A stretch of 64,000 nucleotides of DNA, from positions 3,648,001 through 3,712,000 of the forward strand of contig CAWIAD010000002.1 of assembly GCA_963833985.1 (NCBI GenBank), given 5' to 3'. Made by a program: the position numbers and the translations under genes. Below, piece after piece: positions 17,382-45,975 of the stretch; position 1 is the first letter of the stretch, and the number at the start of each line of letters is the position of its first letter. Origin of the DNA: an uncultured Planctomycetaceae bacterium. Its GTDB lineage: Bacteria; Planctomycetota; Planctomycetia; Isosphaerales; Isosphaeraceae. A model generated the notes under the pieces. It saw only the letters and a list, made by a program, of their open reading frames with translations, ran no database searches and was not told where the DNA came from.

Positions 17382-18599
17382 CTATTTCTTCGGGTCAGGG
17401 CTCCAATGACCCTGCTTCAGTTTCTCATACTTCTTCGTCAGGAAGTCCAGGTGATCCCCCTTCGTCATTGCCGCCTCGAATACCTTGATCGCCAGCGGGT
17501 TCTTCCCCTTCTTCATTGCCCGGTCTGCGAGTCGGATGATCCGCCTCCACGCCCTTGATCCCATCTCCCTGGCGAGATCCTCGAATTCGTCAAACCGCTC
17601 CTGCTCGGCAACCACCTGACCCAAGAATGTGAGCGCCTCCTCACTCTGGTAATCCAGGTCATCTTCACGCAGTGCGGTGACCTCATGGCGTAGATGCTCA
17701 ACGCATAGGTCTGCCTGACTCTCCGTAAGTCCCCGGAAATAGCCCTCGATCCCATCGTCAGTGAGCCCGTAGTCCTCCCAAATCAGGAAATCCAGGAGGT
17801 CGGTGAAGAAGACCCGCTCGTCGATCTCGGTCTGGTCAAGGGGAATCTTGAGGTAGGCGGTGAAGCCGTCATCGAAACTCGCCCCAATAACGCCGAACGA
17901 GTCATCCGCTTTCTCGATCAGTTCTATGATCACCGTCATCAAGCTCCGCAAGAGCGCTTGTGCCTGAGCCACCTTATTCGCTGCGAGGAGTTTCTTTGCC
18001 TCTTCCACGTAACCGTCGAGGGTTTCAGAAATCCGAAACGACTCATTCTTTGAATAAAACCTCCTGTGGCGGAAGTGAGTGCCGATCTTCTTCGCATAGG
18101 ACTCTGGCGAGACCGGGAAATTCTTCCAGTAACCACGCAGGGCATGAATTGATCGCCGCTTTCGGGGCGTATCCTTCATAGGCTCCGACAAATCTCGCTC
18201 CCGGTAGATGGTCTGGCTCATCCTATCGATCGCTCGTCGCTTCTCCGTTTTGGCGAGATCACCAGCGGCTTTGAAGACCTGATCCGGGGTAATCACCGCT
18301 TCGTTCAGGCGGCGTTTGAGATCACGTATGTGGCATCGCTTGCGCTCGATGGAGTCACGGTGTTTGAAGAAACCTCTCCCTTCCTTGATCTGGTTGGCTA
18401 GGCGATCCAGGTCGCCGTCATGCGTATGTACGGCGACAATGCAAAACCACAAATCCCAGTAGCTCAGGTCGAGTGATGTGCCCTGGGTGGTGGGAATGGT
18501 CAAGGCGTGATCAGTACCGCTGATCGTGGGTCTCTTCTGAGGCTGGGGTTCTGGCTCCCGGATTGACGGACTCGTATTCACTCCCTTCTTCTTTGCCAT
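17382..18599 (-). CDS. Hypothetical helical protein
   Basis: 405-aa ORF with a GAGG RBS; no motif recognised. Confidence 0.7.
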   Translation of the reverse strand: MAKKKGVNTSPSIREPEPQPQKRPTISGTDHALTIPTTQGTSLDLSYWDLWFCIVAVHTHDGDLDRLANQIKEGRGFFKHRDSIERKRCHIRDLKRRLNEAVITPDQVFKAAGDLAKTEKRRAIDRMSQTIYRERDLSEPMKDTPRKRRSIHALRGYWKNFPVSPESYAKKIGTHFRHRRFYSKNESFRISETLDGYVEEAKKLLAANKVAQAQALLRSLMTVIIELIEKADDSFGVIGASFDDGFTAYLKIPLDQTEIDERVFFTDLLDFLIWEDYGLTDDGIEGYFRGLTESQADLCVEHLRHEVTALREDDLDYQSEEALTFLGQVVAEQERFDEFEDLAREMGSRAWRRIIRLADRAMKKGKNPLAIKVFEAAMTKGDHLDFLTKKYEKLKQGHWSPDPKK

Positions 18600-18715
18600 C
18601 TGAGAATCCTCGATCGGGCTTGGCTATTCCTACTTCCGAAGCTTCGTAAGCCAAGATACTCGATCAGCCAACAGAGGAGGGAGCCAGGCACAGCACCAGT
18701 TGCGTCTGTCCCCCA

Positions 18716-19129
18716 TCAGTCCTGCTTCCGACCCGATCCGCCTTTCACGATCTTCATGTTGTTCCAATCAACCAGTGGCAGCACGATGGAATTACCCGGA
18801 CCTTCACCCGTGCCCAACTGACCCATCGAGACGAAGCAGTTCTGAGACAAGAACCAAGCCATCTCCTCCTGGTTGATCGGACCATCGGCGTAAACGTCGA
18901 TCATCACAGATGCCACAAGCCTATACCTTATCAGTCCCTTGCAGCGCCTCTTGAGAATCCGCCGCATGTCTTGAGTCACAACCAGCGAATCGGCATAGGT
19001 CACGGCTTTTCGCTGGTCGTTGGAGAAGCCTCTCCCCGTCCAGTACCGCTCCCTCTCATCCTGGATGATGTACCGGAGCCATTGCGATTCGATAAAAGGA
19101 ATTGCAGCCAAGGTTGGCTTCTTCATCAT
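18716..19129 (-). CDS. Hypothetical protein downstream of the motif copies at 19190/19289
   Basis: GGAGG RBS before ATG 19129. Confidence 0.6.
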   Translation of the reverse strand: MMKKPTLAAIPFIESQWLRYIIQDERERYWTGRGFSNDQRKAVTYADSLVVTQDMRRILKRRCKGLIRYRLVASVMIDVYADGPINQEEMAWFLSQNCFVSMGQLGTGEGPGNSIVLPLVDWNNMKIVKGGSGRKQD

Positions 19130-19157
19130 GGTGATCCCGTAATACCTCCGACGATCC

Positions 19158-19332
19158 AAGGAGCCTTCACCGGGCTCTCTCCATATACTTCGTCGGTGTC
19201 AGGCGGTGTGCGTGTCGGCTGATCCCCAGGCTGGGTGGCGCTGTCCCTGCCGATTTAAGGAGCCTTCACCGGGCTCTCTCCATATACTTCGTCGGTGTCA
19301 GGCGGTGTGCGTGTCGGCTGATCCCCAGGCTG
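19158..19332. repeat. Exact 76-bp direct repeat (19158-19233 and 19257-19332), each containing a minus-strand TGACACCGACGA
   Basis: Read directly from the sequence; 23-bp spacer. Confidence 0.9.
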
Positions 19333-20365
19333 AATGGCGGCGCTCTCTATATAATAATACGAGGGGCGAAGGCTACGGACGCCTCCCGCACCCGTCAGGG
19401 GCATTTGTAAGTCGCATGAGACTTACGACTTGGCGACATAATCTCAATCGAGAACGAAGGTTCCGCCAACCCCCATCCTGGCTCACGTCCCCCGTCTGGT
19501 CTCATTTCCGCCGCTCCTTCGCAGCCAACTGACACCGCCGATTGCGTCGTTGATAACCAACGACCAACCGGGAGTCAGTCATGCCAACGCAAGAACAACT
19601 CAGAGAGCAGATCACCGCACAAGTCATCGCCGCCTTGGAGTCCGGTGACGTGCCGCCGTGGAGAAGACCTTGGCGACTGGGCAAGAATGCTGGTTCCCCC
19701 GCCAACGTGGTCTCCAAGCGAGGCTACCGAGGGCTCAACCTGCTGCTCTTGGACGTGGCGGCGACTCGCCACAACCTGTCCAGTCGTTGGTGGGGAACTT
19801 TCAATCAGTGGCGGCAACTGGGCGGCAGGGTGATGTCTCGTCCAAGCCACGTTCCTCCTGGCAAATGGGGAACTCAGATCGTCTTCTGGGCTCCCGTCGT
19901 CAAGACAGTCGAAAACGAGAACGGCGAGGAGGAAGAAGACCGGTTCTTCTTCATGCGGACTTACTGCGTCTTCAATAGCGAGCAAGTTGATGGGCTTGAC
20001 CACCTCAAAGCCGGTCAACCTGACACCGGTAAGAACCACGTCGTCGATTTCCAGCCCGCCGAAGAGGCATTGGAAGCCAGTCTCTCTGGGATGCAACTGA
20101 GCCTTCGTTTTGGCGGGGGCAAGGCGTTCTACAACCCTGCCCAGGACTACGTGCAGATCCCACCAAAGGCGACCTTCGAGTCACTGAAAGAGTACTACGG
20201 AACCGTCTTCCACGAACTCGTTCATGCCACGGAACACGAGTCTCGGCTGAACTGGAGTCGGAAGGACAAAGACAAGACCTATGCCTTCGGGGAACTCATC
20301 GCCGAGTTGGGCGGCGTCTTCGTCTGTCGTGAGTTGGGAGTCCCGGCGAGCGATGACCTGACTAA

Positions 20366-21875
20366 TTCTACTGTATCTCTACGTTCGTAGTTGGTTCTTC
20401 AAAGGGGGTAAGAGTTTGCGTGAGTAATGCTGGAAGAATCGGGCGAGCTCGTTGCGTTCCAACCAACGTGTGGTGCACCGGGAGAGCTTCTCGGGGCTGT
20501 TGACGTTGAGACGTTCCTCGATGATCCCTGCGATCAGTTGCCGCAACCGCGGTGACGTCAATGCCGGTGTCTGTATTTTTTCCCCGCCGCGTCTCCTGAT
20601 TCAGGAACCACGCGGCCACGAGCGACAAGGTTTGATGGTGATGCCAGGCGATCCAGTTCCGCACCTGGTAATCGGCCAGGCCCGCCTCCCCTTTGCCCCG
20701 CTCCAGGCACTCCTCGATCCGATGCGCCAGTTTGGCCACCCGGCCAAATTCGATCAACGGAGTTTCGGCTTTACTATTTGATAAATAATAATCATGTTTA
20801 ACAGTTCCATCGGCCTGTTGCTCACGCGTGATGAAGAGGACCTCCTCGAAACCTGCACGATTGCCCGGTCCTCGAGATTGGACGCGCCGCTTGATCGCGT
20901 CGACCACCAAAGGTCCCTTCTCGCCATCACGGACGTCGAGCCTCGTCCACGCCGATTCCGGCAGGGCCGCACGCCAATGATCCACACGCATGAAAGGAGC
21001 CTTGGGGGGTTGACCCCGCCCCCCATATTCCGGTGGCGGTGCCTCCAGATCGCGGATCGTCGTGTTCGACGGAACCGCCAACAGATACTGCTCCCCCCGC
21101 TCCCTCAACGCCTGGCGAAAACTCGCGGGACGGCCCATTTCATCGTCCCCCGCCACCCACGCGTGTGGCAGCAACCCACCTTGCTCATCCAGCATCGCCA
21201 GGGCCAATTGATGGCGCGTCTGGAACTTGATGGACTTGGGGACGCCAGCCTTGTTCCGGCGGTCGCGATCCTTGGCCCATTCCTTGGGCAAGTAAAGCCT
21301 TACATTGGTAATCGTATGCTCTTTTCTAGACGCATAAGCCATGTAGACGCCAACCTGACAGTTCTCAACCTTCCCCAGCCGGCCGCACCACTGCCGCGCG
21401 ACGCCCACCGACATAGTCCCTTTCTTGGGGAAGCCCGAAGGGTCGAAGATAATCACCCCATCCTTCTCGCCCAGTTGCTCGCCGACCTGCTGCGCCAGGA
21501 TCGTGAGCAGGGGTTGATGATCCCATGGCACGTGCCCGATGAACTTTTGGATTCCTTGTCGTTCTTGATCGTGGAGATAAGCGATTCCCTCGCCGGTCTT
21601 GTGCTCAAGCTTCGACAGCAGACCGGTAACGTACTCGGTTGCATGTCGATGTTGTTCAGGTTCGCTCAGGGTCGCAGCGAACGGCTCGATGAAGACGTCC
21701 AACCGTTCCAGCAGACCATCGATCAAGTCAGGCGACACCTGCGATTGTGCCAGCATGTCAGCCAACCGTGCTTCGTATCGTCGATCCATGACGCCCTCGC
21801 TTCCTTGTAACATCCTTGACGGAAGCGAATATCAGAAAAAACCTTACAGTTCGTCAACCCCAGGATACAGTAGAA
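20366..21875 (-). mobile_element. IS701-family insertion sequence
   Basis: 12-bp terminal IRs TTCTACTGTATC (20366-20377) / GATACAGTAGAA (21864-21875). 4-bp CTAA target duplication at 20362-20365 and 24126-24129. Confidence 0.9.
20368..21789 (-). CDS. IS701-family DDE transposase
   Basis: IFDPSGFPKKG..SVGVARQWCGRLGKVENCQVGV and IEECLERGKGEAGLADYQVR.W..WHHH. Confidence 0.92.
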   Translation of the reverse strand: MDRRYEARLADMLAQSQVSPDLIDGLLERLDVFIEPFAATLSEPEQHRHATEYVTGLLSKLEHKTGEGIAYLHDQERQGIQKFIGHVPWDHQPLLTILAQQVGEQLGEKDGVIIFDPSGFPKKGTMSVGVARQWCGRLGKVENCQVGVYMAYASRKEHTITNVRLYLPKEWAKDRDRRNKAGVPKSIKFQTRHQLALAMLDEQGGLLPHAWVAGDDEMGRPASFRQALRERGEQYLLAVPSNTTIRDLEAPPPEYGGRGQPPKAPFMRVDHWRAALPESAWTRLDVRDGEKGPLVVDAIKRRVQSRGPGNRAGFEEVLFITREQQADGTVKHDYYLSNSKAETPLIEFGRVAKLAHRIEECLERGKGEAGLADYQVRNWIAWHHHQTLSLVAAWFLNQETRRGKNTDTGIDVTAVAATDRRDHRGTSQRQQPREALPVHHTLVGTQRARPILPALLTQTLTPFEEPTTNVEIQ

Positions 21876-24119
21876 CCTACTTTCCGCACATCTCGCCTTG
21901 ACTATCTCCTAATTTCCGTGTGCCGTCTTTCGGCCTGTCAGGCTCAAATCTCGTAGGCTTTGGGTATCCCCAGCAGGCGCAGGATCCTCTTCTGGAGCCG
22001 AGTTAACTCTGTGCTGAACACCTCAAGAGGGCGTTTCCCAGCCTTCAGGGAATGCTCTTGAACGTCCTCGTACAGGTCGATCACTTTTCGAGCCGTCGGG
22101 CGTCGGCAGGCCCGACCTTCGGAATACAGTGGCAGGCTCTCGATTCCCGCTCGTTCCATCGCGCGGCGGAGTTCTCGCTCCAACAGCGCCTCGACCAGCA
22201 ACACGAAGAAGTACACGCAGAGCAAGGCCTGAATCCGACTCACCTCCTTCAGGTACATAGGCGCTACCACGAAGTCAGTCTTCAGGTGCTCGAACCGTCG
22301 TTCGATGGCCGGTTGCTGTTTGTAGGCCAAGAGCAGATCCTGCTCCGTCATCTTCGATTCGTTGCTCACCAGCGGGAAAATGCCATCACAGCGGGCCTCC
22401 TCATCCAGTCGCTCCAACTCAATCCGATGCTTCAACGAGTAACGGAGCTTCTCCTCTCGGACGTACCGCGTGTCCTGTCCAGGCCGGCCGCGTCGCTCCT
22501 GGCGGAACTTTTCGGTGACCTGCTCCTCGATCTCGACCGAGATCCACTCGGTGACCTCACAGTCTCGGAGCAGCTCCTCGACCGCCTCGGCGACCTTGGC
22601 TCGACTGCGGTACCGGGTTCGGGACGAGGCGAGCTTGGCACGCAGTTCGTCCAGTCGTTTCAACGCCTTCTCCAGCCGGGTCAGCCGTACCTCCGCATCC
22701 AACTCGGCCTTGCGTGTGCTGTGATACCAGATCAGCCGGTAACCCTCGGTGGTCTGGCTCGCAGGTTTGCAGATCGAGAAGCGGTCGGTCAACTGTCCCT
22801 TGTCGTCGTACTTGTCGTGGGTCCATCGCCACTGGATCTCTCCCCGGAGTACGGCGCCGCGGAAGGCACCGTCCTCACTGCGAGTTCGCGGCAGCACGCT
22901 GAGGAACCGACCGCCGCGCTGATGCAGATAGGCCATGTTCTCGGTGGTGGCCAGCTTGCAGTCGGCGATGTAGAGAAAGTCTCGGCGTCCGGTCAGTTGA
23001 CAGAGCAACTCCCAGGTCTCCTGGTGAGAGCGGTCGTCGGTGGCGTTGCCGCTCTCGACGCGAAAGTGCACCGGGACGGCACCGTCGCCGGTCACGGTGA
23101 GGATGTAGAGTAGCTGCTTGAGGTCGGGGCGGTGGTCTTTGTTATGACCCCAGGTCACCGCCAACCGCAATTGTCCCCGCAGGGTTCGCTCCGCCTCCGC
23201 CGACTCGTAGTCACCGTGGAAAGTGATGGTGGTCGAGTCGTTGTGTAACTGGTCGAGGCTGACGTCGAATTCGCGTACGGCATGGGCCGCGACCTTCAGG
23301 GCCAACCCCGAGAGATTGGCGTCGAAGAGACGGTCGAGGGCCCGGCCAACTCGATCGTCGTTCATTGCGGCGACTTGGACATCGGACAACCCGAACAGTT
23401 TCGGCTCATGGCGGGCCACCCACTCACCGACACCATAGAGTGGCTCACGCGAGATCAGCAGGTTGCGCAGCAGGACGAGCAAGGCCGTGGCCGTGGGGAC
23501 CCGAGTGCGGCCGTCCTCATGGGGCAGGTGGTCGCAGAGAAACTCGCGAAGGCGGAGCCGACTCAGGAAGTGTTCCAGGATGGGCACGGCGGCAATCCGC
23601 CGCGTGTTGAGCGTGCGCTTGCGTCCCTTCGAGCGTGCCGTCTCGCCGGGTTGGCGCGGTCGTTGAGGTTCGTTCATGCGGATCATCTCCGGAGGGTTTG
23701 CAGCGAGTTGGCCGGTGTCCGCCGCCGGGCCTTCCAGGGCCGTGAGGGGAGCAGGCCGACCGCCGCAGGGCTTGCCGCAATGATGGCGGAGGAGATCGGG
23801 ACGTCAAGGACAAAAAATCTTGTGATTCACTTATGACAATTTGCCTTGACGTAAGTTGTGAGCCGCTCAACTTACGCTCATAGCCCGTGTCACAAGTCGT
23901 CGCGGCGAGAATCGCGGCGCGCGGCTGGACATTGCCAAGTCATAAGACAAGGCGAAGAATGGCTCGAGTTCAGGAACGGTCCGGTTGGCGAACCATCTGA
24001 ACCGAACAAGGTCCCCGTGCCGATCGACTTGTAGATGTTTACCGACCCTGGGGCCGCGTCTGAGAAGATGGCCTCAGGTCGAATTCGGGGAAATCAAAGG
24101 GAGATGTGCGGAAAGTAGG
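21876..24119 (-). mobile_element. IS1634-family insertion sequence
   Basis: 19-bp perfect IRs CCTACTTTCCGCACATCTC (21876-21894) and its complement (24101-24119). 6-bp GTAGAA duplication at 21870-21875 and 24120-24125. Confidence 0.9.
21944..23686 (-). CDS. IS1634-family transposase
   Basis: NDDRVGRALD, HNDSTTITFHG, GHNKDHRPDLKQ, YIADCKL and YKQQPAIERRF. Confidence 0.9.
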   Translation of the reverse strand: MIRMNEPQRPRQPGETARSKGRKRTLNTRRIAAVPILEHFLSRLRLREFLCDHLPHEDGRTRVPTATALLVLLRNLLISREPLYGVGEWVARHEPKLFGLSDVQVAAMNDDRVGRALDRLFDANLSGLALKVAAHAVREFDVSLDQLHNDSTTITFHGDYESAEAERTLRGQLRLAVTWGHNKDHRPDLKQLLYILTVTGDGAVPVHFRVESGNATDDRSHQETWELLCQLTGRRDFLYIADCKLATTENMAYLHQRGGRFLSVLPRTRSEDGAFRGAVLRGEIQWRWTHDKYDDKGQLTDRFSICKPASQTTEGYRLIWYHSTRKAELDAEVRLTRLEKALKRLDELRAKLASSRTRYRSRAKVAEAVEELLRDCEVTEWISVEIEEQVTEKFRQERRGRPGQDTRYVREEKLRYSLKHRIELERLDEEARCDGIFPLVSNESKMTEQDLLLAYKQQPAIERRFEHLKTDFVVAPMYLKEVSRIQALLCVYFFVLLVEALLERELRRAMERAGIESLPLYSEGRACRRPTARKVIDLYEDVQEHSLKAGKRPLEVFSTELTRLQKRILRLLGIPKAYEI

Positions 24120-24355
24120 GTAGAACTAACCACATTGCCTATCTCGGGAACTGGCTCCAAGCCATGAAGAACGATTCCCGGTTCATCATCATGGCGAGTG
24201 CTCAGGCGAGCAAAGCCGCCTCTTACATCCTGTCGTTCAGCAGGAAAGAGGAGGAAGTCCCTCAAGAAGACGGTGAACTGGTCACTGCCTGACCTCTTGC
24301 GGGAACGGAGTCCCGCAACCTGACACCGCCGAACAAACTGTCCCGATCGAGGACA

Positions 24356-24517
24356 ACCGGAACAGGGACGCCCGAGACGATCAAGTGGCGGCTCGGCTTT
24401 AGCGATCTACACGCAGCGTTGAACCGCTCCCTGAACTGCGCAGCAGCGGGCGGAATTCTGCTGCCATTGTGAACGCTCGAAGCCGCACTGGATCAACGAC
24501 GGCGTTCCCTGTCCGGT
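24356..24517 (+). ncRNA. Putative structured non-coding RNA or ssDNA rod (~160 nt)
   Basis: Nested complementary arms across an interval with no credible + strand ORF, beginning 35 nt after the motif at 24321. Confidence 0.5.
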
Positions 24518-24579
24518 CTCTTCTGAACCGACACCGCCGAGAGGGGTGCGAGAGCACCACACCCATAAGGGAGACGACC

Positions 24580-24798
24580 GTGAGCATTGGTGAAATGACC
24601 GCCGAACCTCAACTCGGCGACACGGCGTTTTATCGTGCTGCCATCCCACGAGCCAGGAAGCAACGAGTGACCGTATCGGGGTTGTTCCTGAATGGGCGCA
24701 TCAAAGTCACCTTCCCGGATGGGAGTTGGAAAAGCCTCCCACGTCATTATCACAAGCGGATTCAGAACGAGCGATTCGGGCTTGTAAGGATCGAATAG
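24580..24798 (+). CDS. Small hypothetical protein (72 aa)
   Basis: GGGAG RBS; GTG start 51 nt after a motif copy. Confidence 0.55.
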   Translation: MSIGEMTAEPQLGDTAFYRAAIPRARKQRVTVSGLFLNGRIKVTFPDGSWKSLPRHYHKRIQNERFGLVRIE

Positions 24799-24883
24799 CA
24801 GTCACAACCGCGACTTCAGCGTCACCGTTTGACACCGCCGAAAGGGATGTGAGATCAACACACACCTAGCAACGGAGATCAAC

Positions 24884-25489
24884 ATGACAGCACTGGGTGA
24901 AATGACCCTAGAAGATGCCGCAAAGCAAGCGGCAGGAAATTGGCAGCGTTTCGAGTGCTTTGTGTGGTTCAGGGACGAGGAGGTTGATGACCCCGACAAC
25001 TGGGTGATCATCTACACGCACAACAGAGACAGCGGTCTCCTTGACAAGAGCAACGCCGAAGCCATCGCCGAAGCGATGGAGCCGTTCACGAACGGTCACG
25101 ACCCGGATGTGGTGGTGGAATCCCATAACCACTGGGCAGTCGGGCACGTGGATGGCTTCAGCATCAGGGTTTACCGGGACGGTGAGATCACCGGAGCCTT
25201 CCGCACCTACCACGACCTGATGGAGCAAGTGGACGGCTACCCAATCCTGGATGAAGAGGATTATTGGGAACGGGAACTTGATGCGACCCTCGAAAACATC
25301 AGTGACGCCGCATGGCGTGTGAAGCACGAATACACCTTGCCCGAGGGCTGGGAAGGAGACGTTTACTCCTGGCTGAGCGACAACCGCTCGGGAGCCGTCG
25401 AGAACCGTGACGACCAAGGGGGCTATCCCGAAGAGGATGACCTTCGGGCGGCGTTCGCTGCCCTGGGCTATGAGCGGATCGAAGAGTAG
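24884..25489 (+). CDS. Acidic hypothetical protein
   Basis: 201 aa with GGAG RBS, motif-led. Confidence 0.75.
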   Translation: MTALGEMTLEDAAKQAAGNWQRFECFVWFRDEEVDDPDNWVIIYTHNRDSGLLDKSNAEAIAEAMEPFTNGHDPDVVVESHNHWAVGHVDGFSIRVYRDGEITGAFRTYHDLMEQVDGYPILDEEDYWERELDATLENISDAAWRVKHEYTLPEGWEGDVYSWLSDNRSGAVENRDDQGGYPEEDDLRAAFAALGYERIEE

Positions 25490-25547
25490 GACCGGGTGAC
25501 ACCGCCGAGGAGGGTGTGATGAACGCCCTCTTCGATGGAGTGAGACC

Positions 25548-25754
25548 ATGAACGAAAGCCCCGATGAGTGGCTCGAACGGCTCTTCGAGTTCGAGTACTG
25601 CCCAGAGTGCGGCGGCGATGCCGACGACCATGAAGTGAGCGTGGTCTTGGGGAATTACTTTGCGTGGTGCAAGCGGTCTCCCTTCGCCGACACCGCCGAG
25701 GAGGGTGTGATGAACACCCTCCCCGATGGAGCACGTGGGGCATCTGTGCCATGA
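25548..25754 (+). CDS. Small CxxC protein; the C-terminus runs through the next motif copy
   Basis: YCPECGG...WC; motif-led. Confidence 0.55.
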   Translation: MNESPDEWLERLFEFEYCPECGGDADDHEVSVVLGNYFAWCKRSPFADTAEEGVMNTLPDGARGASVP

Positions 25755-25825
25755 GTGACCGAGGCGGGGCTGGCATCTTCAGCCCCGCTCACCTGACACC
25801 GGATAACAACCTCGGAGAGCAGTCA

Positions 25826-26191
25826 ATGGCACTGATTGAGCGAAACGGCAGGGTCTATGCCCGCAAACTGTGGATCTTCCTCGGCGCGAGCGAATGGGGC
25901 AACGACCTCATGAGGCTGGTCGCGAGGGAAGCCTTCGCCAATGACGCCAGCTTGGATGCCGTCCAGGTACACGAGCACGGTGGCTGGTATCTCACCTTCC
26001 TGCGAGGCGGCACGATCGTCGGCATCGCCAACGATCAGGCGCATCTCGATGACAGAGCCAATCGGCGGGAGAGATTCGCCGCCCCTGACACCGACGAGAA
26101 GGGCATGGATGCCATGCCGCAGAGCACACGCATGGGGAATACGAATGAGCAACTCAGGAATCACACCACGGTTCAGCCTTCTCCAACTTGA
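25826..26191 (+). CDS. Hypothetical protein; the C-terminus runs through the next motif copy
   Basis: GGAG RBS, MALIERNGRVY... Confidence 0.5.
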   Translation: MALIERNGRVYARKLWIFLGASEWGNDLMRLVAREAFANDASLDAVQVHEHGGWYLTFLRGGTIVGIANDQAHLDDRANRRERFAAPDTDEKGMDAMPQSTRMGNTNEQLRNHTTVQPSPT

Positions 26192-26543
26192 CGAGACCAA
26201 GTTCTGGGCGGATGAGGTTGTCCGTAGTGCCAAGCAGGTTTTCGGTCTTTACGTCTTTGACCAGAACAGGAGGGTCCATTGTTGCGAGTTCACACCCAGC
26301 TACGAGTGCGTCTTCGTCGGTTCCGCTATCGGGAACACCGACCTCGACGAAACCGCCAACGAACGGCTCGACACCGCCATCAGAGAGGGCGATCTGGAAA
26401 CCGAGCAGGTGAAGTACATCCACTGCCGCGAGATCGACGCCCTTCCGAAGATCGGCGATCAAGACCTCAAGGTGGGCGTCTCCGACCTCAACATCGATGA
26501 CGAAGAGGAAGCCCTGGAATACGTCCGACAGCGGGCTCTTTGA
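26145..26543 (+). CDS. Hypothetical protein (132 aa)
   Basis: MSNSGITPRF..., 59 nt after a motif copy. Confidence 0.65.
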   Translation: MSNSGITPRFSLLQLDETKFWADEVVRSAKQVFGLYVFDQNRRVHCCEFTPSYECVFVGSAIGNTDLDETANERLDTAIREGDLETEQVKYIHCREIDALPKIGDQDLKVGVSDLNIDDEEEALEYVRQRAL

Positions 26544-26594
26544 AGTGACACCGCCGACAAGTGCGACAGGCAACCCCCAACTCAGGAGACCCAC

Positions 26595-27488
26595 ATGGCA
26601 TTCACCGCTGATACCGGGGACCACAAAGTCACCCGCAGCGACATTTACCTCGTAGACCCCACGGCGCTGATCGTGGACTGGCGGAAGAACCTCAGCCGCA
26701 ACGGCGAGGAGCCACCCGTTGACGAACCTCTCATGGATCTGGCTCGCGACATGATGCCCAAGAGGGGGCAGGGCGACACGGAGGAGGGCACAAGCGGGCA
26801 ACTCAATCCGATCCTCGTTCGACCCCTCAGCGACCGTCGCCTGGAGGTGGTAGGCGGCTTCCGCCGCATGCGGGCAGCCCTCTGGCTCATCGAGTCGGGC
26901 ACGTGCCCCGACTTCAAGATCAAGTACGTCGTCAGCCGCCTGTCCGACGCCGAGGCGGCACTGATCAACCTCAGCGAGAACATCCAACGGGAAGATCCCA
27001 AGCCCATCCAGCTTGCCCACGCGGTACGGGCACTGACCGAGGATTATGGACTTACTCTCAAGCAGGTTGCAGGACGACTGAAACGCTCCGAGGCTTGGCT
27101 GTCGAATTTGCTCAACCTCGTGATGCTTCCCACTTCGATCCAGGAGAGCGTGGCGAACGGGAAGACTCCCGTCTCTGCCGCCCTTGAACTGACCAAGTTC
27201 CCGACCGACAAGCAGGTCGAGACCTTCAACGACCTGGCAGCCAGTGGCGAGAAAGTCACCGCTGCCAAGGTGCGGAAGAGGCGGCAGGAGACGCACGAGG
27301 CGACCGGTGAGGGCGGTCCCGTGCCCCGCACCCTCAAGCAACTGAGGGCATTCCTCGAAGGAAAGACCGGTCCCGCCGACCCCGGTCACAAGCTCGCCTC
27401 CTACCTGCTCGACTACCTGGCGGGCAAGAAGAGCGATGACAACCTGGGCAAGTACTGGGACAAGGCGTTCCCCGAAGGCAACGGCTGA
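26595..27488 (+). CDS. ParB/Srx-family protein with HTH
   Basis: GQLNPILVR, VVGGFRRMRA, LSENIQRED and an HTH (LKQVAGRLKRSEAWLS). Confidence 0.85.
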   Translation: MAFTADTGDHKVTRSDIYLVDPTALIVDWRKNLSRNGEEPPVDEPLMDLARDMMPKRGQGDTEEGTSGQLNPILVRPLSDRRLEVVGGFRRMRAALWLIESGTCPDFKIKYVVSRLSDAEAALINLSENIQREDPKPIQLAHAVRALTEDYGLTLKQVAGRLKRSEAWLSNLLNLVMLPTSIQESVANGKTPVSAALELTKFPTDKQVETFNDLAASGEKVTAAKVRKRRQETHEATGEGGPVPRTLKQLRAFLEGKTGPADPGHKLASYLLDYLAGKKSDDNLGKYWDKAFPEGNG

Positions 27489-27543
27489 CACCAACGTAGG
27501 GGGCGTGACCAACGCCCCCATCAAAAACCAAAGGGATCGCACG

Positions 27544-28479
27544 ATGACCTACCCCGCACTGACCCTGATCAACCCGATCCCGGACGAGTCCGCCCAGGTC
27601 GCCGAGGAGTCCACGCTCACGGCGCTGGAAGAGCGGCAGAATCTCCTGGCTCATCACGTGCGGCTCGTCGCCCGAGGTCTCTCAGTAGGGCTCTTCGTTT
27701 ATGGACCGCATGGAGGGCTTGGTAAGAGCCGCACAGTGCTGCGGACACTCGCTGATGAAGGCGTGTCGCCGATTCTCGTGAACTCGCACATCACGCCTCT
27801 GGCTCTCTACAGCACGCTCTACTTCAACCGCTCGGGGAAAGTCGTCTTCTTCGACGACGTGGATTCAATCTTTGGCTCTATGTCGCACCTTGGCTTGCTT
27901 CGATCGGCTCTCTGGGGCGATCCCAGGATCGTCACATACGGGTCAAGCCAATTGGATGATCTGCTGGGCTCGTTCATCTTCGAGTCCCGTCTCATCTTTT
28001 CGGGCAACGTGATCCCCAAGCGGAACGACGCCTTCAAGGCAGTGCTCTCGCGGTGCGACATCTTTCAACTCGATGCGACCCAGGAAGAGGTCATTGAACT
28101 CATGAGGTCGGTCTCAAGGCAGGGCTATGAGACGCTGACGCCCGATGACTGCCTCGAAGTCGTAACGTTCATCGAGGAGAACGGTGATGACCGCGCGATC
28201 TCGATAAGGCTCTTGGAGCCGAGCTTCCGCAAGGTGATCTACGCACAATCGGAGGGCTTGGACTGGCGACCGCTTGTCCTGACCCAACTCCGCACTCTCG
28301 GACGCAAAGAGGATACGTCCCGCCGCGTGGACGCCAAGGCTCGGGAGATTCGCACACTTCACCAAGCCATCGAGCGGTTCCCTGACTCTGTGGCTGAGCA
28401 GCAGATGTTCTGGAGCAAAGTAACGAGCAAAAGCCGGGCTTCCTTTTTCCGGCTCATCGCCAAGCACCGTCCACGTTGA
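27544..28479 (+). CDS. P-loop (AAA-like) ATPase
   Basis: Walker A GPHGGLGKS, Walker B VVFFDDVD, and AVLSRC. Confidence 0.75.
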   Translation: MTYPALTLINPIPDESAQVAEESTLTALEERQNLLAHHVRLVARGLSVGLFVYGPHGGLGKSRTVLRTLADEGVSPILVNSHITPLALYSTLYFNRSGKVVFFDDVDSIFGSMSHLGLLRSALWGDPRIVTYGSSQLDDLLGSFIFESRLIFSGNVIPKRNDAFKAVLSRCDIFQLDATQEEVIELMRSVSRQGYETLTPDDCLEVVTFIEENGDDRAISIRLLEPSFRKVIYAQSEGLDWRPLVLTQLRTLGRKEDTSRRVDAKAREIRTLHQAIERFPDSVAEQQMFWSKVTSKSRASFFRLIAKHRPR

Positions 28480-28528
28480 CGATGAGCAGTGGTCCACAGA
28501 GACGGCAAGTGAAAGACTCGCGTCCCGC

Positions 28529-28768
28529 TTACAAGCTGACTTGCACAGCGAGACGGACAATCACGAGAGTCATGATGACGGTATAAGCAATGCAGAGGGT
28601 GGCTCCCGTCAAGGCGAGGTTACGAGACCAGCCAGATGCTCCCTTCGTCATCGAGACAGCCCCAATGGCGATCATCGGGGACACTGGCAATAGCCAGAAG
28701 CAGGCTACGCTCAGGATGGCAAACAGCTTCGCCATTCGCCCCCGCATCACTCCAGCAACAGTGTTCAT
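28529..28768 (-). CDS. Small membrane protein (inverted cargo)
   Basis: Two hydrophobic helices; GAGGAG RBS. Confidence 0.55.
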   Translation of the reverse strand: MNTVAGVMRGRMAKLFAILSVACFWLLPVSPMIAIGAVSMTKGASGWSRNLALTGATLCIAYTVIMTLVIVRLAVQVSL

Positions 28769-28969
28769 GACGCAAGCTCCTCGTGTCGCATCAGCAACCC
28801 TTCTAATCTTGGCACCGTCTACGACATCTGTCAATTCACTGCCTGCCAGTCTTCATTTGCCCAGGAGGAGCCCCTCAACTCCCTGGCTCAACAGTGCGAC
28901 TGCTGAGCCTGAACTGACACCGCCGATCCTCACGTTGAGAACGACAACCACATCAACGGGAGGATCAAC

Positions 28970-29410
28970 ATGATCACGAGATGCGAGCGGCGCGGACAAG
29001 TTGAGATAGGGATCGTTGACCATGAGGGACGGTCCTACGCCGCCTTCGGTTCATCCGTCAACGATCACAACGTAACGGGTTACACCCGGAACCGCAACGG
29101 GTGCATCAGCCTGACTCGCTGGGAGGGCAGCACAATGCTTGCCAGCCGGTCGAATATCGTACGTGAGTATCACGACGGCTCCATCGCCATCATGTTCCGC
29201 CTGACCAACCTCCGGTTCCTCGTCGGCTACGCCCTGGGCGACGACGGCATGTTGTTCAGGGGTGAACTCCTGACCGATTGCGACGGGGAGCGTGCCCGCC
29301 ACGAGTCGGCTGCCCTGGCTCAGTACTGGTCCGAGATCGATGCCGAGGATGAATCTGACCCCTGGCACGGGGAGCCCGACGAGACTGATGGCGATTACCT
29401 GGACAGATAG
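28970..29410 (+). CDS. Hypothetical protein
   Basis: GGGAGG RBS, motif-led. Confidence 0.65.
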   Translation: MITRCERRGQVEIGIVDHEGRSYAAFGSSVNDHNVTGYTRNRNGCISLTRWEGSTMLASRSNIVREYHDGSIAIMFRLTNLRFLVGYALGDDGMLFRGELLTDCDGERARHESAALAQYWSEIDAEDESDPWHGEPDETDGDYLDR

Positions 29411-29501
29411 CAGTTCACGGGTGGGGCGGTAGTAGTGCCGTCTCACTCGACACCGCCGATGGCGGCATCAACTACTACTTGTCTTAAACGGGAGCGACTT
29501 C

Positions 29502-29810
29502 ATGAGCGTGAATGAGACCAAGAAGCCCTTGTTCGACCTTGGACAGATCGTCGCGACTCCCGGAGCCTTGGACGCCCTGCGAGACGCCAGGCAGACACTC
29601 GCCGAGTTCTTGACCCGTCACGTGAGCGGCGACTGGGGCGACCTCGATCAAGAGGATAGCAACCTCAATGACGCCGCCGTGATCGACGGCAGCCGCATCC
29701 TGAGCGCCTATCAGACACGCAAAGGGGAGCGGATTTGGATCATCACCGAAGCGGCTGATGACCAGGGGCACCGCTCTTCAAGCACGCTGCTTTTACCTCG
29801 GGAGTATTGA
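29502..29810 (+). CDS. Conserved plasmid/ICE-associated small protein
   Basis: LFDLGQIVATPGA, RHVSGDWGDL, RILSAY, IWIITEA and LLLPREY pattern, typical of mobile-element accessory genes. Confidence 0.75.
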   Translation: MSVNETKKPLFDLGQIVATPGALDALRDARQTLAEFLTRHVSGDWGDLDQEDSNLNDAAVIDGSRILSAYQTRKGERIWIITEAADDQGHRSSSTLLLPREY

Positions 29811-29914
29811 ACTCATCCCATTCCATCCCTTCTCGCCGGGCTGACACCGGTGAGACGGGTGTGAGATCAATCCCAGCCGTACCCAAGCACCAAGAGGGAC
29901 GATCACACCTGCGG

Positions 29915-30382
29915 CTAAACAGGCTCAGTGGGGTTCCTCTTGCTCCACCGGTGGCAGATCCAGCCAGCAACCAAAGCCGGGATCAATTGGAGCATCGTCA
30001 AATAAGCCATAGCTATTCCAAACCTACAGATGTAATCAGCAGCAGACTGCTGAGAAGTAATGGCTCTCACCACTGGACCAAGGGTGCGGCTCAAGTGCTG
30101 GTCGAGGGAGATGGGAGCCTGGAAACAGACGGCAACATAAACCAGGAGACCAATCCAGCCAACGACCTCAATCCCCGCGAGAAAAGAGAGCGGCTTGTCC
30201 CTTCGTTTTCGCCGTCCAAACAAGACCAGCAGCCCGATGACCAGGACGATCTGAAACGGCAATCCGCCGAAGACAAGGGGATAGAGGACCAGATCAGGCA
30301 AGCCCCGGATCGCCAGACAATCCACGGCGACGATGGCGACGATCACCATGATCTCAGCGATCGAGATCCGAGGGGGTCTCAC
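29915..30382 (-). CDS. Membrane protein with Planctomycete-type N-terminus (inverted cargo)
   Basis: GGAGG RBS, GTG start; RISIAEIMVIVAIVAVD followed by TM helices. Confidence 0.65.
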   Translation of the reverse strand: MRPPRISIAEIMVIVAIVAVDCLAIRGLPDLVLYPLVFGGLPFQIVLVIGLLVLFGRRKRRDKPLSFLAGIEVVGWIGLLVYVAVCFQAPISLDQHLSRTLGPVVRAITSQQSAADYICRFGIAMAYLTMLQLIPALVAGWICHRWSKRNPTEPV

Positions 30383-30512
30383 GGCAATCCCTCCCTTTCG
30401 TCCATCCGGCACGCTTTCGACCAACACATCGTAACCCGCACGGGCACCTCCTGCACCCGACACCGCCGAGACGAATGTGAAATCAACGCCCTCAAACGTG
30501 AAAGGAAGATGT

Positions 30513-30764
30513 ATGACCGACCCAACCGAGGACATCCGGCGTCAGATGCTCGCCGAGATCAACGCCGCCCCCGGCTCCAGGGAGTATCTGGAGCACAAGC
30601 ACGGTCAGGTCTGGGATACCCAGCAATTGTCTGATGACTTCGAGGTGCTGGGGTTCGCCGCCCCGCTCGTCGTCGTGAAAAGGAAGAGCGACGGGCAGAA
30701 GGGGAGCCTCTGCTTCCAGGGCTCTCCCCGGTTCTACTTCGGGTTTGAGGCGCACAAGCCGTGA
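30513..30764 (+). CDS. Small hypothetical protein (83 aa)
   Basis: MTDPTEDIRR..., motif-led; its stop codon is the TGA of the next motif. Confidence 0.7.
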   Translation: MTDPTEDIRRQMLAEINAAPGSREYLEHKHGQVWDTQQLSDDFEVLGFAAPLVVVKRKSDGQKGSLCFQGSPRFYFGFEAHKP

Positions 30765-30815
30765 CACCGCCGAAGGGGGCGTTGAGAACGACGCCCCTTT
30801 CCCGGAGGAAGACCG

Positions 30816-31037
30816 ATGGCAGTGGCACTCCTGACAACCAGCGCAGTCGAGTCGATCCTGCGTGACGCAGTGGACAAAGGCTGTTACGTGGAACACAGCA
30901 AGTCTGATGGGACAGCCAAAGCGTTCCACAGTGGTGACTTGGTGTTCCAGTCCATCCAGAAGGGTAAAGACGGACCCTGGATCTGCCGGTTCGTCAACAC
31001 GGAACATATCACCTGGACCAGCACGACCGAAGACTGA
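30816..31037 (+). CDS. Small hypothetical protein (73 aa)
   Basis: GGAGG RBS; its stop codon is the TGA of the next motif. Confidence 0.65.
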   Translation: MAVALLTTSAVESILRDAVDKGCYVEHSKSDGTAKAFHSGDLVFQSIQKGKDGPWICRFVNTEHITWTSTTED

Positions 31038-31139
31038 CACCGACGACAAGGGCGGGAAGGGACGCCTGCCCCAATCAATTCCCAGAAGGGGTCGTCCACG
31101 CAATGTTTCGCGCCTATTGGCTCTCTCGGAGATCCTGAC

Positions 31140-31874
31140 ATGCCCGAAAACCCCTCCGATGACATGACTCACAATGCAAAGCCGAAATCATCCGAGGCTC
31201 AACTCGTCTCCAGGATTACCCGCCTGGTCAAGAAGGAGGGCTTGGACTACGAGGGCTGGCGGTATGTAAGCAAGAGGGTGCGGCGGCTCTGTGACCTGCG
31301 ACCCGAGAAGAAAGGGCGTCGGCTGCCCCGAATCTTGACCACCGAGGAGTTCAGGAGGTTCTATCAGATCGTGGACCGTGCCCAGGACGTTCAGCACTGC
31401 CTGATGCTCAGGCTCTTGTTCTTCACGGCAGTAAGGGTCAGTGAACTCTGCAACATCGGAGTTTCCGAAGTTGATATCGAGGCGTGCAAGATCAGGATCA
31501 ACCAGGGCAAGGGCTCCAAGGATCGCTACGTCCTCTTCGGCAAGTCCTTCGCCACGGCGCTGCGAACGCATATAGCAGCCCACCCGAACAACCGCTGGCT
31601 CTTCCAGACCCAAAGGCACGGCAAGTTCAGCACGAGGAGGGTGCAGCAGATCGTCTCCAAGTACGCCGAGGAGGCGGGAGTCAAAGCTACCCCTCACACC
31701 TTCCGGCACCAGGCGATTACCTGGTTGACTCGCCATTCAGGGCTTGCTGACGCTGAGCTTCAACTGATCACCGGTCATGCCCGCAGAGAGACCCTTGCTG
31801 TCTACCAGCACATGGCTCTCGATGGTGATTTGGAGGCAAAGTATCAGTCGTCCATGAAAGAGATCGAACTTTGA
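31140..31874 (+). CDS. Small XerC/D-like tyrosine recombinase
   Basis: Catalytic set R (AVRVSEL), K (GKGSKDR), HxxR (HTFRH), H (TGH) and Y (AVY). No N-terminal arm-binding domain. Confidence 0.92.
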   Translation: MPENPSDDMTHNAKPKSSEAQLVSRITRLVKKEGLDYEGWRYVSKRVRRLCDLRPEKKGRRLPRILTTEEFRRFYQIVDRAQDVQHCLMLRLLFFTAVRVSELCNIGVSEVDIEACKIRINQGKGSKDRYVLFGKSFATALRTHIAAHPNNRWLFQTQRHGKFSTRRVQQIVSKYAEEAGVKATPHTFRHQAITWLTRHSGLADAELQLITGHARRETLAVYQHMALDGDLEAKYQSSMKEIEL

Positions 31875-31973
31875 CGATGTACAAAAGTGGGACGGCGAAA
31901 CGCTCGATCGGCTGACACCGCCTAGCGGGCTCCGGAGAACGACCCTCAGCACCCCTCACCGGGAAACTCAGCC

Positions 31974-32115
31974 GTGTATTTCCTGACCCTAACGCCAGAC
32001 GAGCGGCGGGCATTTGATTGGGTAGGCTCTCGCTATAACTCGGGCAAGGTCGCCGACCTATTGCTCAATTGCCTGCCGGAAGATCGTGTGTGGGGCGAAG
32101 ACGCTGATGCTACGT
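31974..32115 (+). pseudogene. Probable truncated motif-led small gene
   Basis: MYFLTLTPDERRAFDW... becomes non-protein-like where it meets the inverted thioesterase. Confidence 0.4.
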
Positions 32116-32196
32116 CGCCCAGCGGGTCCACCTGGTCTGTGAGTTGGAGCCTGCCAAGAAGGGGCGCAGACTGCCCCGTGTGGCTAACCGTGCTTC

Positions 32197-32706
32197 CTAC
32201 TGATGCTCCGCTTTCGCCGTCCGATTCAAGTAAGGTCGCATCTCCGCTTCTAGTTGCTTCCCGAACTGCATCAGCCGTTCGGCATACGAATGTAAGCTCT
32301 TGTCGTCTTCGGCGTGAGGTACCCACTGGGGCACTTCCAGAGATAACCCTTTCTCATCCAACGCCACGAACACTATCACACAGTGAGTCGTCGGGATGAA
32401 TTGCCGATCTTTCGGATCGCCGCTCCGCACATTCACCGCAATATGCATGCTCGATCGCCCCGTATAGATCAGTTGAGCATGTACCTCCACAATACTCCCA
32501 ATATGTATGGGTTTATAGAAGCGAATGCCGCCGACATACACAGTGGCACACGGATACCCGCTCCACCCTGCGGCACAGACATACCCTGCTTCATCCATTT
32601 ATTTCATTACCGCCCCACCGTAAACCTTCCCTAAGATGTTTATGTCGGTCGGTGCGGCAAAGAATCGCAAGGTGATTTCTCGAACCCGTTCAGAAGCTTG
32701 TGTCAT
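32197..32706 (-). pseudogene. YciA-like acyl-CoA thioesterase with an in-frame stop
   Basis: TLRFFAAPTDIN..GKVYGGAVMK*MDEAGY, TGRSSM and VFVALD; TAA at 32599-32601. Confidence 0.85.
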
Positions 32707-32875
32707 GGAACTTACCTTATGCTCATGTCCGAAGCCTACTGGCTGAGCAAAACGACGTGCGGCAATGTCAGAAGGCGTCCGACGATGGAGATTGTGTCCC
32801 GCAGATCCCCACAGCGAATCACCTCAAAGGTTGATCTATGACATTTCCGCTGATCGATGGCACTCCCGTCGATAA

Positions 32876-33079: not shown

Positions 33080-33322
33080 GGCTGAACCTCCTTGATGGGT
33101 CTCTTGGATGGGAGAGTCCCGATCCCTCAGCAACCAGCCGGAAATAGAGTTGATACGCCGCGAATCTGACCATTCCTCGACCTTGCTGTCAATGCTATCC
33201 ACGTGCCCAGAGCGCCACCATATCCGATCCCTTTTTCTTATGTCCCTACGTTAGCATCTCCTGACACCGCCGAACTGGTCGTAAAAATAACCCATCCGGC
33301 AATAAGATCAGGAGATCCAGCG

Positions 33323-33781
33323 ATGACCACGACCCAAGAAGCACAAGCGCGATTCGTTGAGGTGGCGTATCCGAGGGCGTTGAAAGCAGTCCATCAGGCA
33401 TTCAAGTATTGGCACATTAAGAAGCGGCAGGATGCTGTCCAGGAATGCCTTGCGAAAATGTGGGATCAGTGGATTAGGTTGGTGAACAAAGGACGAAACC
33501 CGGAGCCAATGCTCGGACGCCTAATTTACTGGTCAATCCTCTGGGTTCGATACGATCGACGCATCGCAGGCAGAGCCCGCAACATCGACGTGACCGATTT
33601 CAGATCAGGCATGAAGCAGCAACAAATCAGCAGCAGGGGCGAGGTCAGCCCCACTGATAGAAGCGATCAGATGAACGGCTGGATCAATTGGACCGTGAGC
33701 GCGAGAGCGGACGATCCGGCTCTTCTCGCCTCTTCATTGGAGGAAGTGGGGCTCACCCTGGAACAGTGGGTGCGTGTGTAG
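33323..33781 (+). CDS. Sigma-70 region-2-like protein apparently lacking the region-4 HTH
   Basis: RQDAVQECLAKMW resembles the ECF region 2.2 DxxQE motif. 152 aa, AGGAG RBS, motif 61 nt upstream. Confidence 0.5.
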   Translation: MTTTQEAQARFVEVAYPRALKAVHQAFKYWHIKKRQDAVQECLAKMWDQWIRLVNKGRNPEPMLGRLIYWSILWVRYDRRIAGRARNIDVTDFRSGMKQQQISSRGEVSPTDRSDQMNGWINWTVSARADDPALLASSLEEVGLTLEQWVRV

Positions 33782-34188
33782 GATGATCGTCACGGGGCGG
33801 TGGGATCACCTGCCGCCCCTGGCTGACAGGAGTGGAGCGGGAAATCTGGCTGCTGACTGACACCGACGAAATAGACGTGAGAGTTGTGAGGGGACGGTAA
33901 GGATGGGTTGGTTGCAGAGTTGTTAAAGCAACAATTCCAGGGTTTCTAATGAAAACTCGGTTCCATAGGCGGCGTGGGTGGAACAATACCGAGGGTGGTT
34001 TCATTTATTGTTACTTCGGAATCGGAGGATTCCCCCAGGGAGGCTGAAAAGATCGCCAGAAAGTCGAGGTCTGAAAATCGCCGTTGGGAAATCGGGGGCT
34101 GGCAGGGTTCGACTAAAGACCTCCCCACCCCTAGTCGGATCAATGTAGATCTCGATCCTCTCGTCGGGGATGGCAACTCTCTCTGTCT

Positions 34189-45899: not shown

Positions 45900-45975
<76 letters not shown>

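Follow-up and report, generated by a model that had tools for sequence, protein, structure and literature searches.

A conserved two-block leader motif in a planctomycete genomic island, best read as a promoter-in-hairpin regulon with a sigma-like protein lacking region 4

The island and its motif-led genes

The window analysed in this study, a stretch of 64,000 nucleotides from an uncultured Planctomycetaceae bacterium (contig CAWIAD010000002.1, positions 3,648,001 to 3,712,000), forms the right end of a 132.6-kb island of low guanine-plus-cytosine (G+C) content flanked by a 47-bp repeat of tRNA-Ala. Between 19.5 and 33.9 kb of the window lies an array of motif-led genes, split by two DDE transposases. 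Besides ardC, it contains genes for a ParB-like protein and a tyrosine recombinase, numerous small genes that are unknown and, on the opposite strand, a CsrA-family gene. The leaders of these genes carry a two-block motif and many of them are predicted to fold into a hairpin. Taken together with its relatives, this leader is a real, conserved regulatory element, best read as part of a promoter-in-hairpin regulon with a sigma-like factor that has lost region 4. The motif copies and the genes of most concern are listed below; opening costs are predicted energies for freeing the ribosome-binding window, first on a read-through transcript and then on the motif's own presumed transcript.

19530..19580, + strand: leader of ardC, hairpin over the Shine-Dalgarno sequence (opening 15.6 vs 6.2 kcal/mol)
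19581..20390, + strand: ArdC (ArdcN plus zincin), 3' end cut by a DDE transposase
24321..24380, + strand: motif copy without a gene after it, short stem at chance level; overlapped on the - strand (24338-24365) by a stem of 12 pairs that resembles a terminator and has a T run
24529..24579, + strand: leader of a gene for 72 amino acids (24580-24798), short stem at chance level
24830..24883, + strand: leader of a conserved gene for 201 amino acids (24884-25489), weak stem; the protein has no relative in the PLSDB plasmids or viral contigs searched
25497..25547, + strand: leader with a strong hairpin, gene 25548-25754
25688..25750, + strand: near-copy of the 25497 leader, within the frame 25548-25754
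26086..26144, + strand: leader of gene 26145-26543
26546..26594, + strand: stem-less leader of the ParB-like gene (26595-27488)
27486..27543, + strand: leader of a gene for 311 amino acids (27544-28479); the TGA of the motif is the parB stop codon
28915..28969, + strand: leader of gene 28970-29410; anti-Shine-Dalgarno arm in the spacer, 28925-28938 with 28953-28966 (opening 14.9 vs 5.2 kcal/mol)
29448..29501, + strand: leader without a long stem (0/12 in its family), gene 29502-29810
29842..29900, + strand: motif copy without a same-strand gene after it
30458..30512, + strand: leader without a long stem (1/13 in its family), gene 30513-30764
30762..30815, + strand: leader with a strong hairpin, gene 30816-31037
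31035..31139, + strand: motif copy before the tyrosine recombinase gene (31140-31874)
31913..31973, + strand: decayed leader of a conserved gene for 88 amino acids, interrupted here
33256..33322, + strand: leader of the sigma-like gene, motif at 33262; inner stem decayed, outer stem (33256-33264 with 33308-33316) covering the Shine-Dalgarno sequence (opening 13.1 vs 5.5 kcal/mol)
33323..33781, + strand: sigma-like protein of 152 amino acids derived from the extracytoplasmic function (ECF) group, with region 2 and a linker and without region 4
33858..34113, + strand: last motif copy, facing a conserved non-coding stretch

A two-block, promoter-like motif

The motif has the consensus YGACACCnMCGR-N6-YGTBR and is numbered from the first base of YGACACC, with YGT at positions 19-21. 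The two blocks are 11 nt apart, which makes 12 nt from TGACAC to YGT, and the median distance to the start codon is 54 nt, with quartiles of 51 and 56. Counted over the window and its related loci, YGACACC sites number 489, of which 220 are followed by a Shine-Dalgarno sequence and a start codon 40-71 nt downstream; 211 of these 220 are oriented like the sigma-like gene. Of 132 non-redundant leaders, 84 have YGT at position 19, and any other tested offset accounts for five at most. In an enlarged set it does so in 116 of 147 leaders, the set having been chosen with a matrix that already favoured the YGT block. The first block proved invariant where its columns were left free, with C6 and C7 present in 101/101 leaders and G2 and A3 in 103/103.

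A scan of the host genome, with a matrix trained partly on the island sites themselves, returned 16 strong sites in the island, 11 of them followed by a Shine-Dalgarno sequence and a start, and ten in the other 10.0 Mb, none of them so followed. A stricter motif pattern failed to recover even the window's own genome.

Because the two blocks are rigidly spaced, keep a fixed distance from the gene and follow its strand, the site appears promoter-like. Its YTGACA resembles a housekeeping -35 element, and no TATAAT-like hexamer was seen at positions 25-29, where the columns carry at most 0.44 bit; a hexamer with A2 and T6, as in a housekeeping -10, occurred in only 0-7 of the 147 leaders at spacers of 16-19. 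A housekeeping promoter of the type with a TRTG extension was rejected for want of that hexamer. Promoters of the sigma-54 type have the form TGGCAC-N5-TTGC, and this candidate was also rejected, there being no TTGC block in the motif logo. No Rfam match was obtained at E<=1 over window positions 18000-35000, and searches of the literature, with most subscription papers outside their reach, returned no description of the motif or of the sigma-like family. Upstream of ardC, a 99-bp tandem duplication (19152-19339) carries two weak motif copies on the - strand, which face 18716-19159 and point away from ardC.

Hairpins around the motif

A preliminary description of this DNA had quoted nine stems of differing sequence, placed them directly after the motif and suggested, as one of three possibilities, that a -10 element is presented in their loops. 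All nine can be found exactly as quoted; their 5' arms end at motif positions 21-23, their 3' arms start at positions 26-31 and their loops measure 3-8 nt. They are, however, the inner tops of longer hairpins around the motif: the 5' arm passes through the motif and spacer, and often further upstream, instead of lying after them, and the 3' arm usually reaches the Shine-Dalgarno sequence. The idea of a looped-out -10 is not supported either, as the conserved YGT block lies within the stem (Watson-Crick paired in 54-57 of 58-60 stems), the loops are unconserved and the TATAAT-like hexamer is missing. The stems show two paired blocks with mismatches between them at positions 8-10, and none of the + strand leader stems between 24000 and 34200 is followed by the T run of an intrinsic terminator.

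When 60 nt from each motif were folded against 200 mononucleotide shuffles, four of the nine quoted stems gave z<-2 (19530, -3.0; 25497, -4.2; 27486, -2.8; 30762, -3.5), while three lay at chance (24321, 24529 and 26086) and the other two gave -1.7 (25688) and -1.5 (31035). Six of all 25 window sites tested passed the same threshold. The window alone is thus a modest case for hairpins, and it is the relatives that make the signal firm. Among the 132 non-redundant leaders, 65 have z<-2 against dinucleotide shuffles, and a strand-neutral alignment placed a stem in 89 of 147 leaders; in a smaller set stems were found in 68/114 leaders, compared with 27% when the 3' arm was shuffled.

The presence of a stem depends on the gene that follows. 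Gene families were defined by motif-anchored clustering, which replaced a blind clustering of open reading frames that was too noisy. Stems were found in 22/25 leaders of the sigma-like gene and 8/8 of ardC, and in 1/13, 0/12 and 0/5 leaders of three other families, the last being the ParB-like family to which the 26546 leader belongs. The weak or absent stems previously reported at 26546 and 33262 are of two kinds: the first is indeed stem-less, like all five leaders of its family, whereas the second has the outer stem listed above, its two arms being complementary throughout. The stem at 28915 had been missed.

Covariation was seen in 12 orthologous leaders of the sigma-like gene. Both sides have changed at 5 of 17 pairs, a value matched in 16/500 shuffles, with 11 both-side cells in total (0/500 shuffles), and 92.6% of cells are paired compared with 36-48% when slid; the sequences are kin and the structure was drawn from the same alignment. 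Since the stems covary and occur by gene family, selection for the hairpins is supported by these comparisons. In the leaders of the gene for 102 amino acids (29448-29466 in the window, and its orthologues), a stem of 3-5 bp is kept within the spacer between the blocks, with an apparent compensatory change in L052.

Shine-Dalgarno pairing

The pairing of the Shine-Dalgarno sequence had also been overlooked. The host 16S tail contains CCUCC, and predicted folding pairs the Shine-Dalgarno sequence with the 5' half of the leader in 79 of the 89 stems. Of the 89, 21 have both motif blocks in duplex, 38 only YGT, seven only the first block, and 23 neither of them. The common element of the stems is thus the Shine-Dalgarno sequence and not the promoter, because the former is paired in 79/89 and both blocks in just 21/89. 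Its partner varies by gene, being position 7, positions 9-10, positions 18-19 or bases upstream of the motif.

The predicted cost of opening the ribosome-binding window has a median of 10.8 kcal/mol on read-through transcripts and 6.6 kcal/mol on the leader's own transcript, taken to begin at position 31. This position lies in the 3' arm in 61 of the 89 stems and in the loop in 28, and starts assumed at 28 or 36 gave much the same result. With the 5' half of another family's leader in place of the real one the median was 9.0 kcal/mol, the real value being the higher in 101/147. Leaders of the sigma-like gene gave 18.1 kcal/mol for read-through, 6.5 for their own transcript and 9.7 for the swap. 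Of the leaders in the window, 19530, 28915 and 33262 show a strong contrast, and 29448 and 27486 show none.

The sigma-like protein

The gene at 33323-33781, which did not figure in the preliminary description, encodes a protein that by itself matches no Pfam family. The predicted model of residues 1-87 found SigH (VIA Z 9.2, root-mean-square deviation 2.7 over 78 aligned residues) and SigR (Z 8.7) as the top two among 48,161 chains. A sequence profile against the PDB gave nothing significant and the NCBIfam SigE match was weak (E 0.0072, under the cut-off); a profile search reached proteins of 180-230 residues with Sigma70_r2 or Sigma70_r4 matches. The family profile aligns at 99.7% to 14 relatives with both sigma2 and sigma4 and stops where region 4 begins; 81 of 98 homologues end 23 residues past the last shared motif. 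A full-length relative, P0129, has 50% identity over 126 residues. D37, Q40 and E41 form a putative core-binding D-x-x-Q-E helix; across 76 aligned rows, the conservation of D37 and E41 is 90% or higher. These residues match D60, Q63 and E64 of ShbA, which are described as binding the clamp helices in the available part of the ShbA report (PMC12019637).

The motif precedes the sigma-like gene in 44 of the 54 leaders listed, a count made by eye in which many leaders are near-identical, and it does so in the window, at 33262. The 152-residue protein is likely, judging from the sequences compared, to be the factor that reads the motif. No relative of it was found in the viral contigs or PLSDB plasmids searched. 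Full-length paralogues with sigma2 and sigma4 lie beside the region-4-less gene, behind the same kind of leader, in several loci (L003:9050-9625, L013:9271-9834, L016:11019-11591 and L017:10746-11297), and a truncated one is present in L034.

Distribution of sigma-like genes and motif classes

A profile search over 121 genomes from the family of the host found the sigma-like gene in 19 (G000 included; two of the genes are weak or broken), and a single-sequence query found it in 0 of 400 other genomes of the phylum. The related loci are all from Planctomycetota wherever a taxon is given, and gene order is largely conserved between related islands, with some modules changing place.

Ten leaders of the sigma-like gene have no YGACACC motif, and most of these carry other repeated motifs. 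Class C corresponds to a clade of four rows (94/100) with CAAYGACCGGACRMRCCC and no class A site, and class B to three loci with RGCACCCTGG that do not form one clade. In the tree, the pattern wrongly assigned L015 to class A (A 0 and B 3 by count); L064, being too short, and near-duplicate loci are not included. Such a correspondence fits a factor and its site changing together. The sigma-like proteins of the class C loci (L010, L011, L016, L017 and L059) and class B loci (L015, L046 and L064) are divergent; those of class C are without the last helix, and class C leaders have no fixed YGT block.

Proposed mechanism

The findings may be joined as follows. The 152-residue protein would attach to core polymerase through its D37/Q40/E41 helix and read YGT as a -12/-10 block, an assignment modelled on C-12 G-11 in ShbA promoters. 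The start would then fall in the loop or 3' arm, around position 31, or 36 if the other register applies. Contacts to the invariant upstream block, located roughly at -30 to -24, would come from the 65-residue tail or from a helper. Transcripts that start at the promoter would not include the 5' arm, leaving the ribosome-binding site free for translation, while read-through transcripts from upstream would fold and hide it.

As its own leader carries the motif, the sigma-like gene would activate itself, and the hairpins would stop read-through from the host or from upstream genes from firing this positive loop or from yielding ArdC and the rest of the gated products. Such a loop would amplify itself and yet resist leakage, because the sigma-like gene has both the motif and the strongest gate. 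For the stem-less families (two of small genes and the ParB-like one), both kinds of message would be translatable. A possible parallel is the way IS10 is shielded from transcription that enters from outside. This chain as a whole, from promoters read by an element-encoded sigma without region 4 to read-through RNA that hides its ribosome-binding site, is put at slightly less than an even chance. A bolder version is doubtful: a family of planctomycete islands would run a private programme in which a single-chain sigma without region 4 reads the upstream block with its new 65-residue tail, every promoter is set in an anti-Shine-Dalgarno hairpin that keeps read-through from firing the self-activating switch, and tail and motif vary together to give orthogonal sigma-promoter pairs.

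Several observations weigh against the promoter-in-hairpin reading. The swap control is exceeded by a small margin, 1.8 kcal/mol in the median, and no stem was placed in 58 of the 147 leaders. For a helical domain a Z of 9.2 counts as modest, no Foldseek match reached E<=0.001 (SigH came first at E 1.2), and residues 88-152 are modelled at low confidence; the 65-residue tail, or a helper, is a candidate reader of the upstream block. At 12 nt, the distance from TGACAC to YGT falls short of the 16 nt in ShbA promoters. The match between clade and motif class could be explained by co-inheritance and is not independent proof. At least six motif arrays in five genomes (G404, G426, G429, G444 with two, and G492; 65-99% complete), with 6-13 sites each, are without the sigma-like gene; they were recognised from the fetched stretch and a genome search, as clusters listed and not as a census. 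Three of them keep the flanks of the missing module, which suggests its deletion and fits decay.

The stems also show no overall G-U bias on the message strand, where G-U would be expected to exceed A-C for structures at work in RNA alone. Mismatches are G.T:A.C = 47:47 (34:34 as unique events), and sense and antisense strands fold about equally, whereas a small control set of terminators gave 15:7. By zone, the free spacer has 23:10, the fixed blocks 14:28 and the remainder 20:21. Within the fixed blocks a fixed C can decay only to C-A, and long, over-stable stems in decaying islands may explain the missing bias.

Alternative explanations

The most serious alternative, although an unlikely one, is a single-strand promoter of the Frpo type, in which the template strand, as it enters, folds into a hairpin and restores a double-stranded promoter from which genes are expressed early, either alone or beside a role in RNA. 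According to the available parts of the reports on Frpo and ssi, these are single-strand promoters of conjugative leading regions with canonical -35 and -10 elements for host polymerase (PMC9849209, PMC11541004), and they share with the island repeated stem-loop leaders before one-strand arrays with anti-defence genes. ArdC, the ParB-like protein and small acidic proteins give the array a content like that of a leading region, and the 211/220 sites on one strand agree with it. In some leaders the 3' arm nearly mirrors the whole motif at the same spacing. The mismatches, moreover, do not favour the message strand, the A.C-rich fixed blocks (14:28) being G.T on the template.

Against this, both blocks are in duplex in just 21 of the 89 stems and neither is in 23; sigma leaders of the window's type have G20 and T21 in the loop, with bases upstream pairing with the Shine-Dalgarno sequence. 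The predicted start would fall in the arm needed as non-template strand. The island motif further differs from Frpo, as far as the same sources describe it, in having no housekeeping -10 and an element-encoded sigma. No relaxase or secretion-system family was detected in 154 proteins scanned (55 from the window and 99 left-island frames), and no conjugation genes were found in the island. VirB4 was absent from the five carrier genomes searched and Relaxase PF03432 from five genomes searched. In favour of this alternative, a TrwC relaxase and a coupling protein are encoded on the host's other contig and could act in trans. Of the single-strand or cruciform promoter proposed in the preliminary description, the promoter-like nature of the site is thus retained, while its Frpo form is weakened by the small number of stems that rebuild both blocks.

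It is also rather improbable that the motif is the site of another activator, or of a host sigma or a full-length paralogous one, with the 152-residue protein merely regulated or anti-sigma-like and the hairpin still acting as a gate. The six or more arrays without the sigma-like gene would be accounted for, as would the full-length sigma2-sigma4 paralogues behind the same leader in some arrays and the likeness of YTGACA to a housekeeping -35. The window's genome, however, yielded no paralogue at E<=0.001 with a single-sequence query, no helix-turn-helix or region-4 family was found in 15 array and island proteins at E<=1, no motif-led genes occur beyond the island, and the motif class tracks the clade of the protein.

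A cruciform promoter, in which supercoiling extrudes both strands and offers a melted -10 to the sigma without region 4, would agree with the strand-symmetric mismatch spectrum and with stem tops that end at or near YGT. Stems that are G+C-rich, mismatched and bulged with large loops extrude poorly. The stems here are of this kind, with loops of up to 15 nt that are not conserved, and they track the Shine-Dalgarno sequence rather than the promoter. This explanation is very unlikely.

Equally far down is an RNA signal read by a protein, whether for boxA/boxB-like antitermination, for processing or for translational coupling at UGA. Coupling would find some favour in the motifs that start exactly at the upstream stop codon, 14 cases and the commonest single distance, and a CsrA-family gene is present in 16 of 64 loci. 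Most stop distances are nonzero, though, and about 40% of motif copies start with C and hence have no stop codon there. The second block keeps its spacing with or without a stem, the Rfam search was negative and the only motif-tracking regulator found has a sigma fold. A boxA/boxB signal, as proposed earlier, or a terminator signal is not supported, given the same fixed spacing and the missing T run after + strand stems.

A folded recombination substrate like attC, with leader and gene as a cassette, was also proposed earlier and is the least likely of all: two paired blocks with mismatches at positions 8-10, the relocation of some modules between islands and the tyrosine recombinase in the window's array speak for it, but recombinase matches occur in only 10/64 loci and in none of five with long arrays (L003, L004, L006, L039 and L045), the recombinase scores 74.6 bits against an integron-integrase cut-off of 265, gene order is largely kept, and three sigma-module losses have their ends elsewhere than at the motif. 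No cognate integron integrase was found for the leader and no excision ending at it, which sets it apart from an integron attC site.

Comparison with known systems

The closest counterpart of the promoter-in-hairpin arrangement appears to be that of the T4 late promoters of e, soc, 49 and I-TevI, which sit in hairpins that sequester the Shine-Dalgarno sequence, as given in the available parts of the reports concerned (PMC3014915, PMC2988022). In both systems the promoter lies in the 5' arm, the start inside the hairpin and the ribosome-binding site is hidden on longer transcripts, these features being predicted for the island, and in both the sigma is encoded by the element and would need no region 4 of its own (gp55 in T4). 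In the island, unlike T4, the gate would span most of a regulon, including the sigma gene, within a chromosomal island; an upstream block belongs to the promoter, whereas T4 late promoters consist of a single TATAAATA; a partner like gp33 was not found; and the system is known from sequence alone.

Tn916 Sig7-Sig8, as far as the available text goes, is a split sigma, as are SigO-RsoA and SPO1 gp33-gp34, and has a predicted positive loop (10.64898/2026.10.01.756105). Like that pair, the island protein would be an alternative sigma of a mobile element with predicted positive feedback and a need for silence in the host. It differs in that no second gene with region 4 was identified and in serving many promoters where Tn916 has one main one. 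The island is moreover predicted to have hairpin gating and is without conjugation genes as far as found, whereas gating is not described for Tn916 in that text. No region-4 or helix-turn-helix partner that would make the island protein a split sigma was found among 15 array and island proteins, and full-length paralogues occur in some loci only; a partner from the host or with an unfamiliar fold may exist.

ShbA, an ECF sigma of Streptomyces, transcribes in vitro without region 4 and uses an N16 spacer, according to the accessible part of its description (PMC12019637). The island protein is predicted to resemble it in its region-2 fold, its D-x-x-Q-E helix, its C-12 G-11-type block and its autoregulation; region 4, however, is kept by ShbA and deleted in the island family, and the block gap is 16 nt in one and 12 nt in the other. 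The ECF classification, in the portion available, discards proteins without region 4 (PMC7826278), and for that reason the island family would fall outside it.

Should the promoter-in-hairpin reading hold, the family would provide a natural sigma without region 4 acting on a two-block promoter of unusually short spacing, which would widen the known modes of promoter finding. It would also extend the T4 promoter-in-hairpin gate to a whole regulon, where it would insulate a positive feedback loop in a mobile island, and provide a phylum for which genetic tools are scarce with a compact switch that is proof against read-through. The three motif classes and the stem-bearing and stem-less leaders are natural variants for testing.

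Other features of the island

The repeat that bounds the island in the window is as follows.

45902..45948, no strand: 47-bp direct repeat, 3' part of tRNA-Ala, with its partner 132.5 kb leftward

The two DDE transposases lie back to back in the ardC end (20368-23686), and copies of both occur in the left part of the island. A CsrA-family gene (32876-33082, - strand) is divergent from the sigma-like gene. A related island in G431:C34 (about 1,515,600-1,628,600) lies between two tRNA-Val copies 113 kb apart.

Directly after the sigma-like gene, a conserved non-coding stretch (33784-34113; 70-80% identity in many loci) opens with a short hairpin and holds the last motif copy; candidates for its role are a replication or transfer origin and an RNA. 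In relatives one or other of two large genes, both unannotated, comes next, while the window has other cargo there. The first type (L043:7192-9306 and L021:6921-8612) and the second (L049:2313-3977 and L039:10877-12529) are distinct; one of the two large downstream genes has motifs that may resemble those of family A polymerases, and the other gave primase-like look-alikes below the score bar.

The cargo of the window includes WD40/TPR genes (37355-43750) with internal repeats 70-80% identical and 1.4-3.0 kb apart. Near the tRNA end is a truncated ClpX-like ATPase gene (44728-45363, - strand), preceded by a weak motif copy at 45434; this ATPase is full-length (about 400 residues) in L034, L039 and L045.

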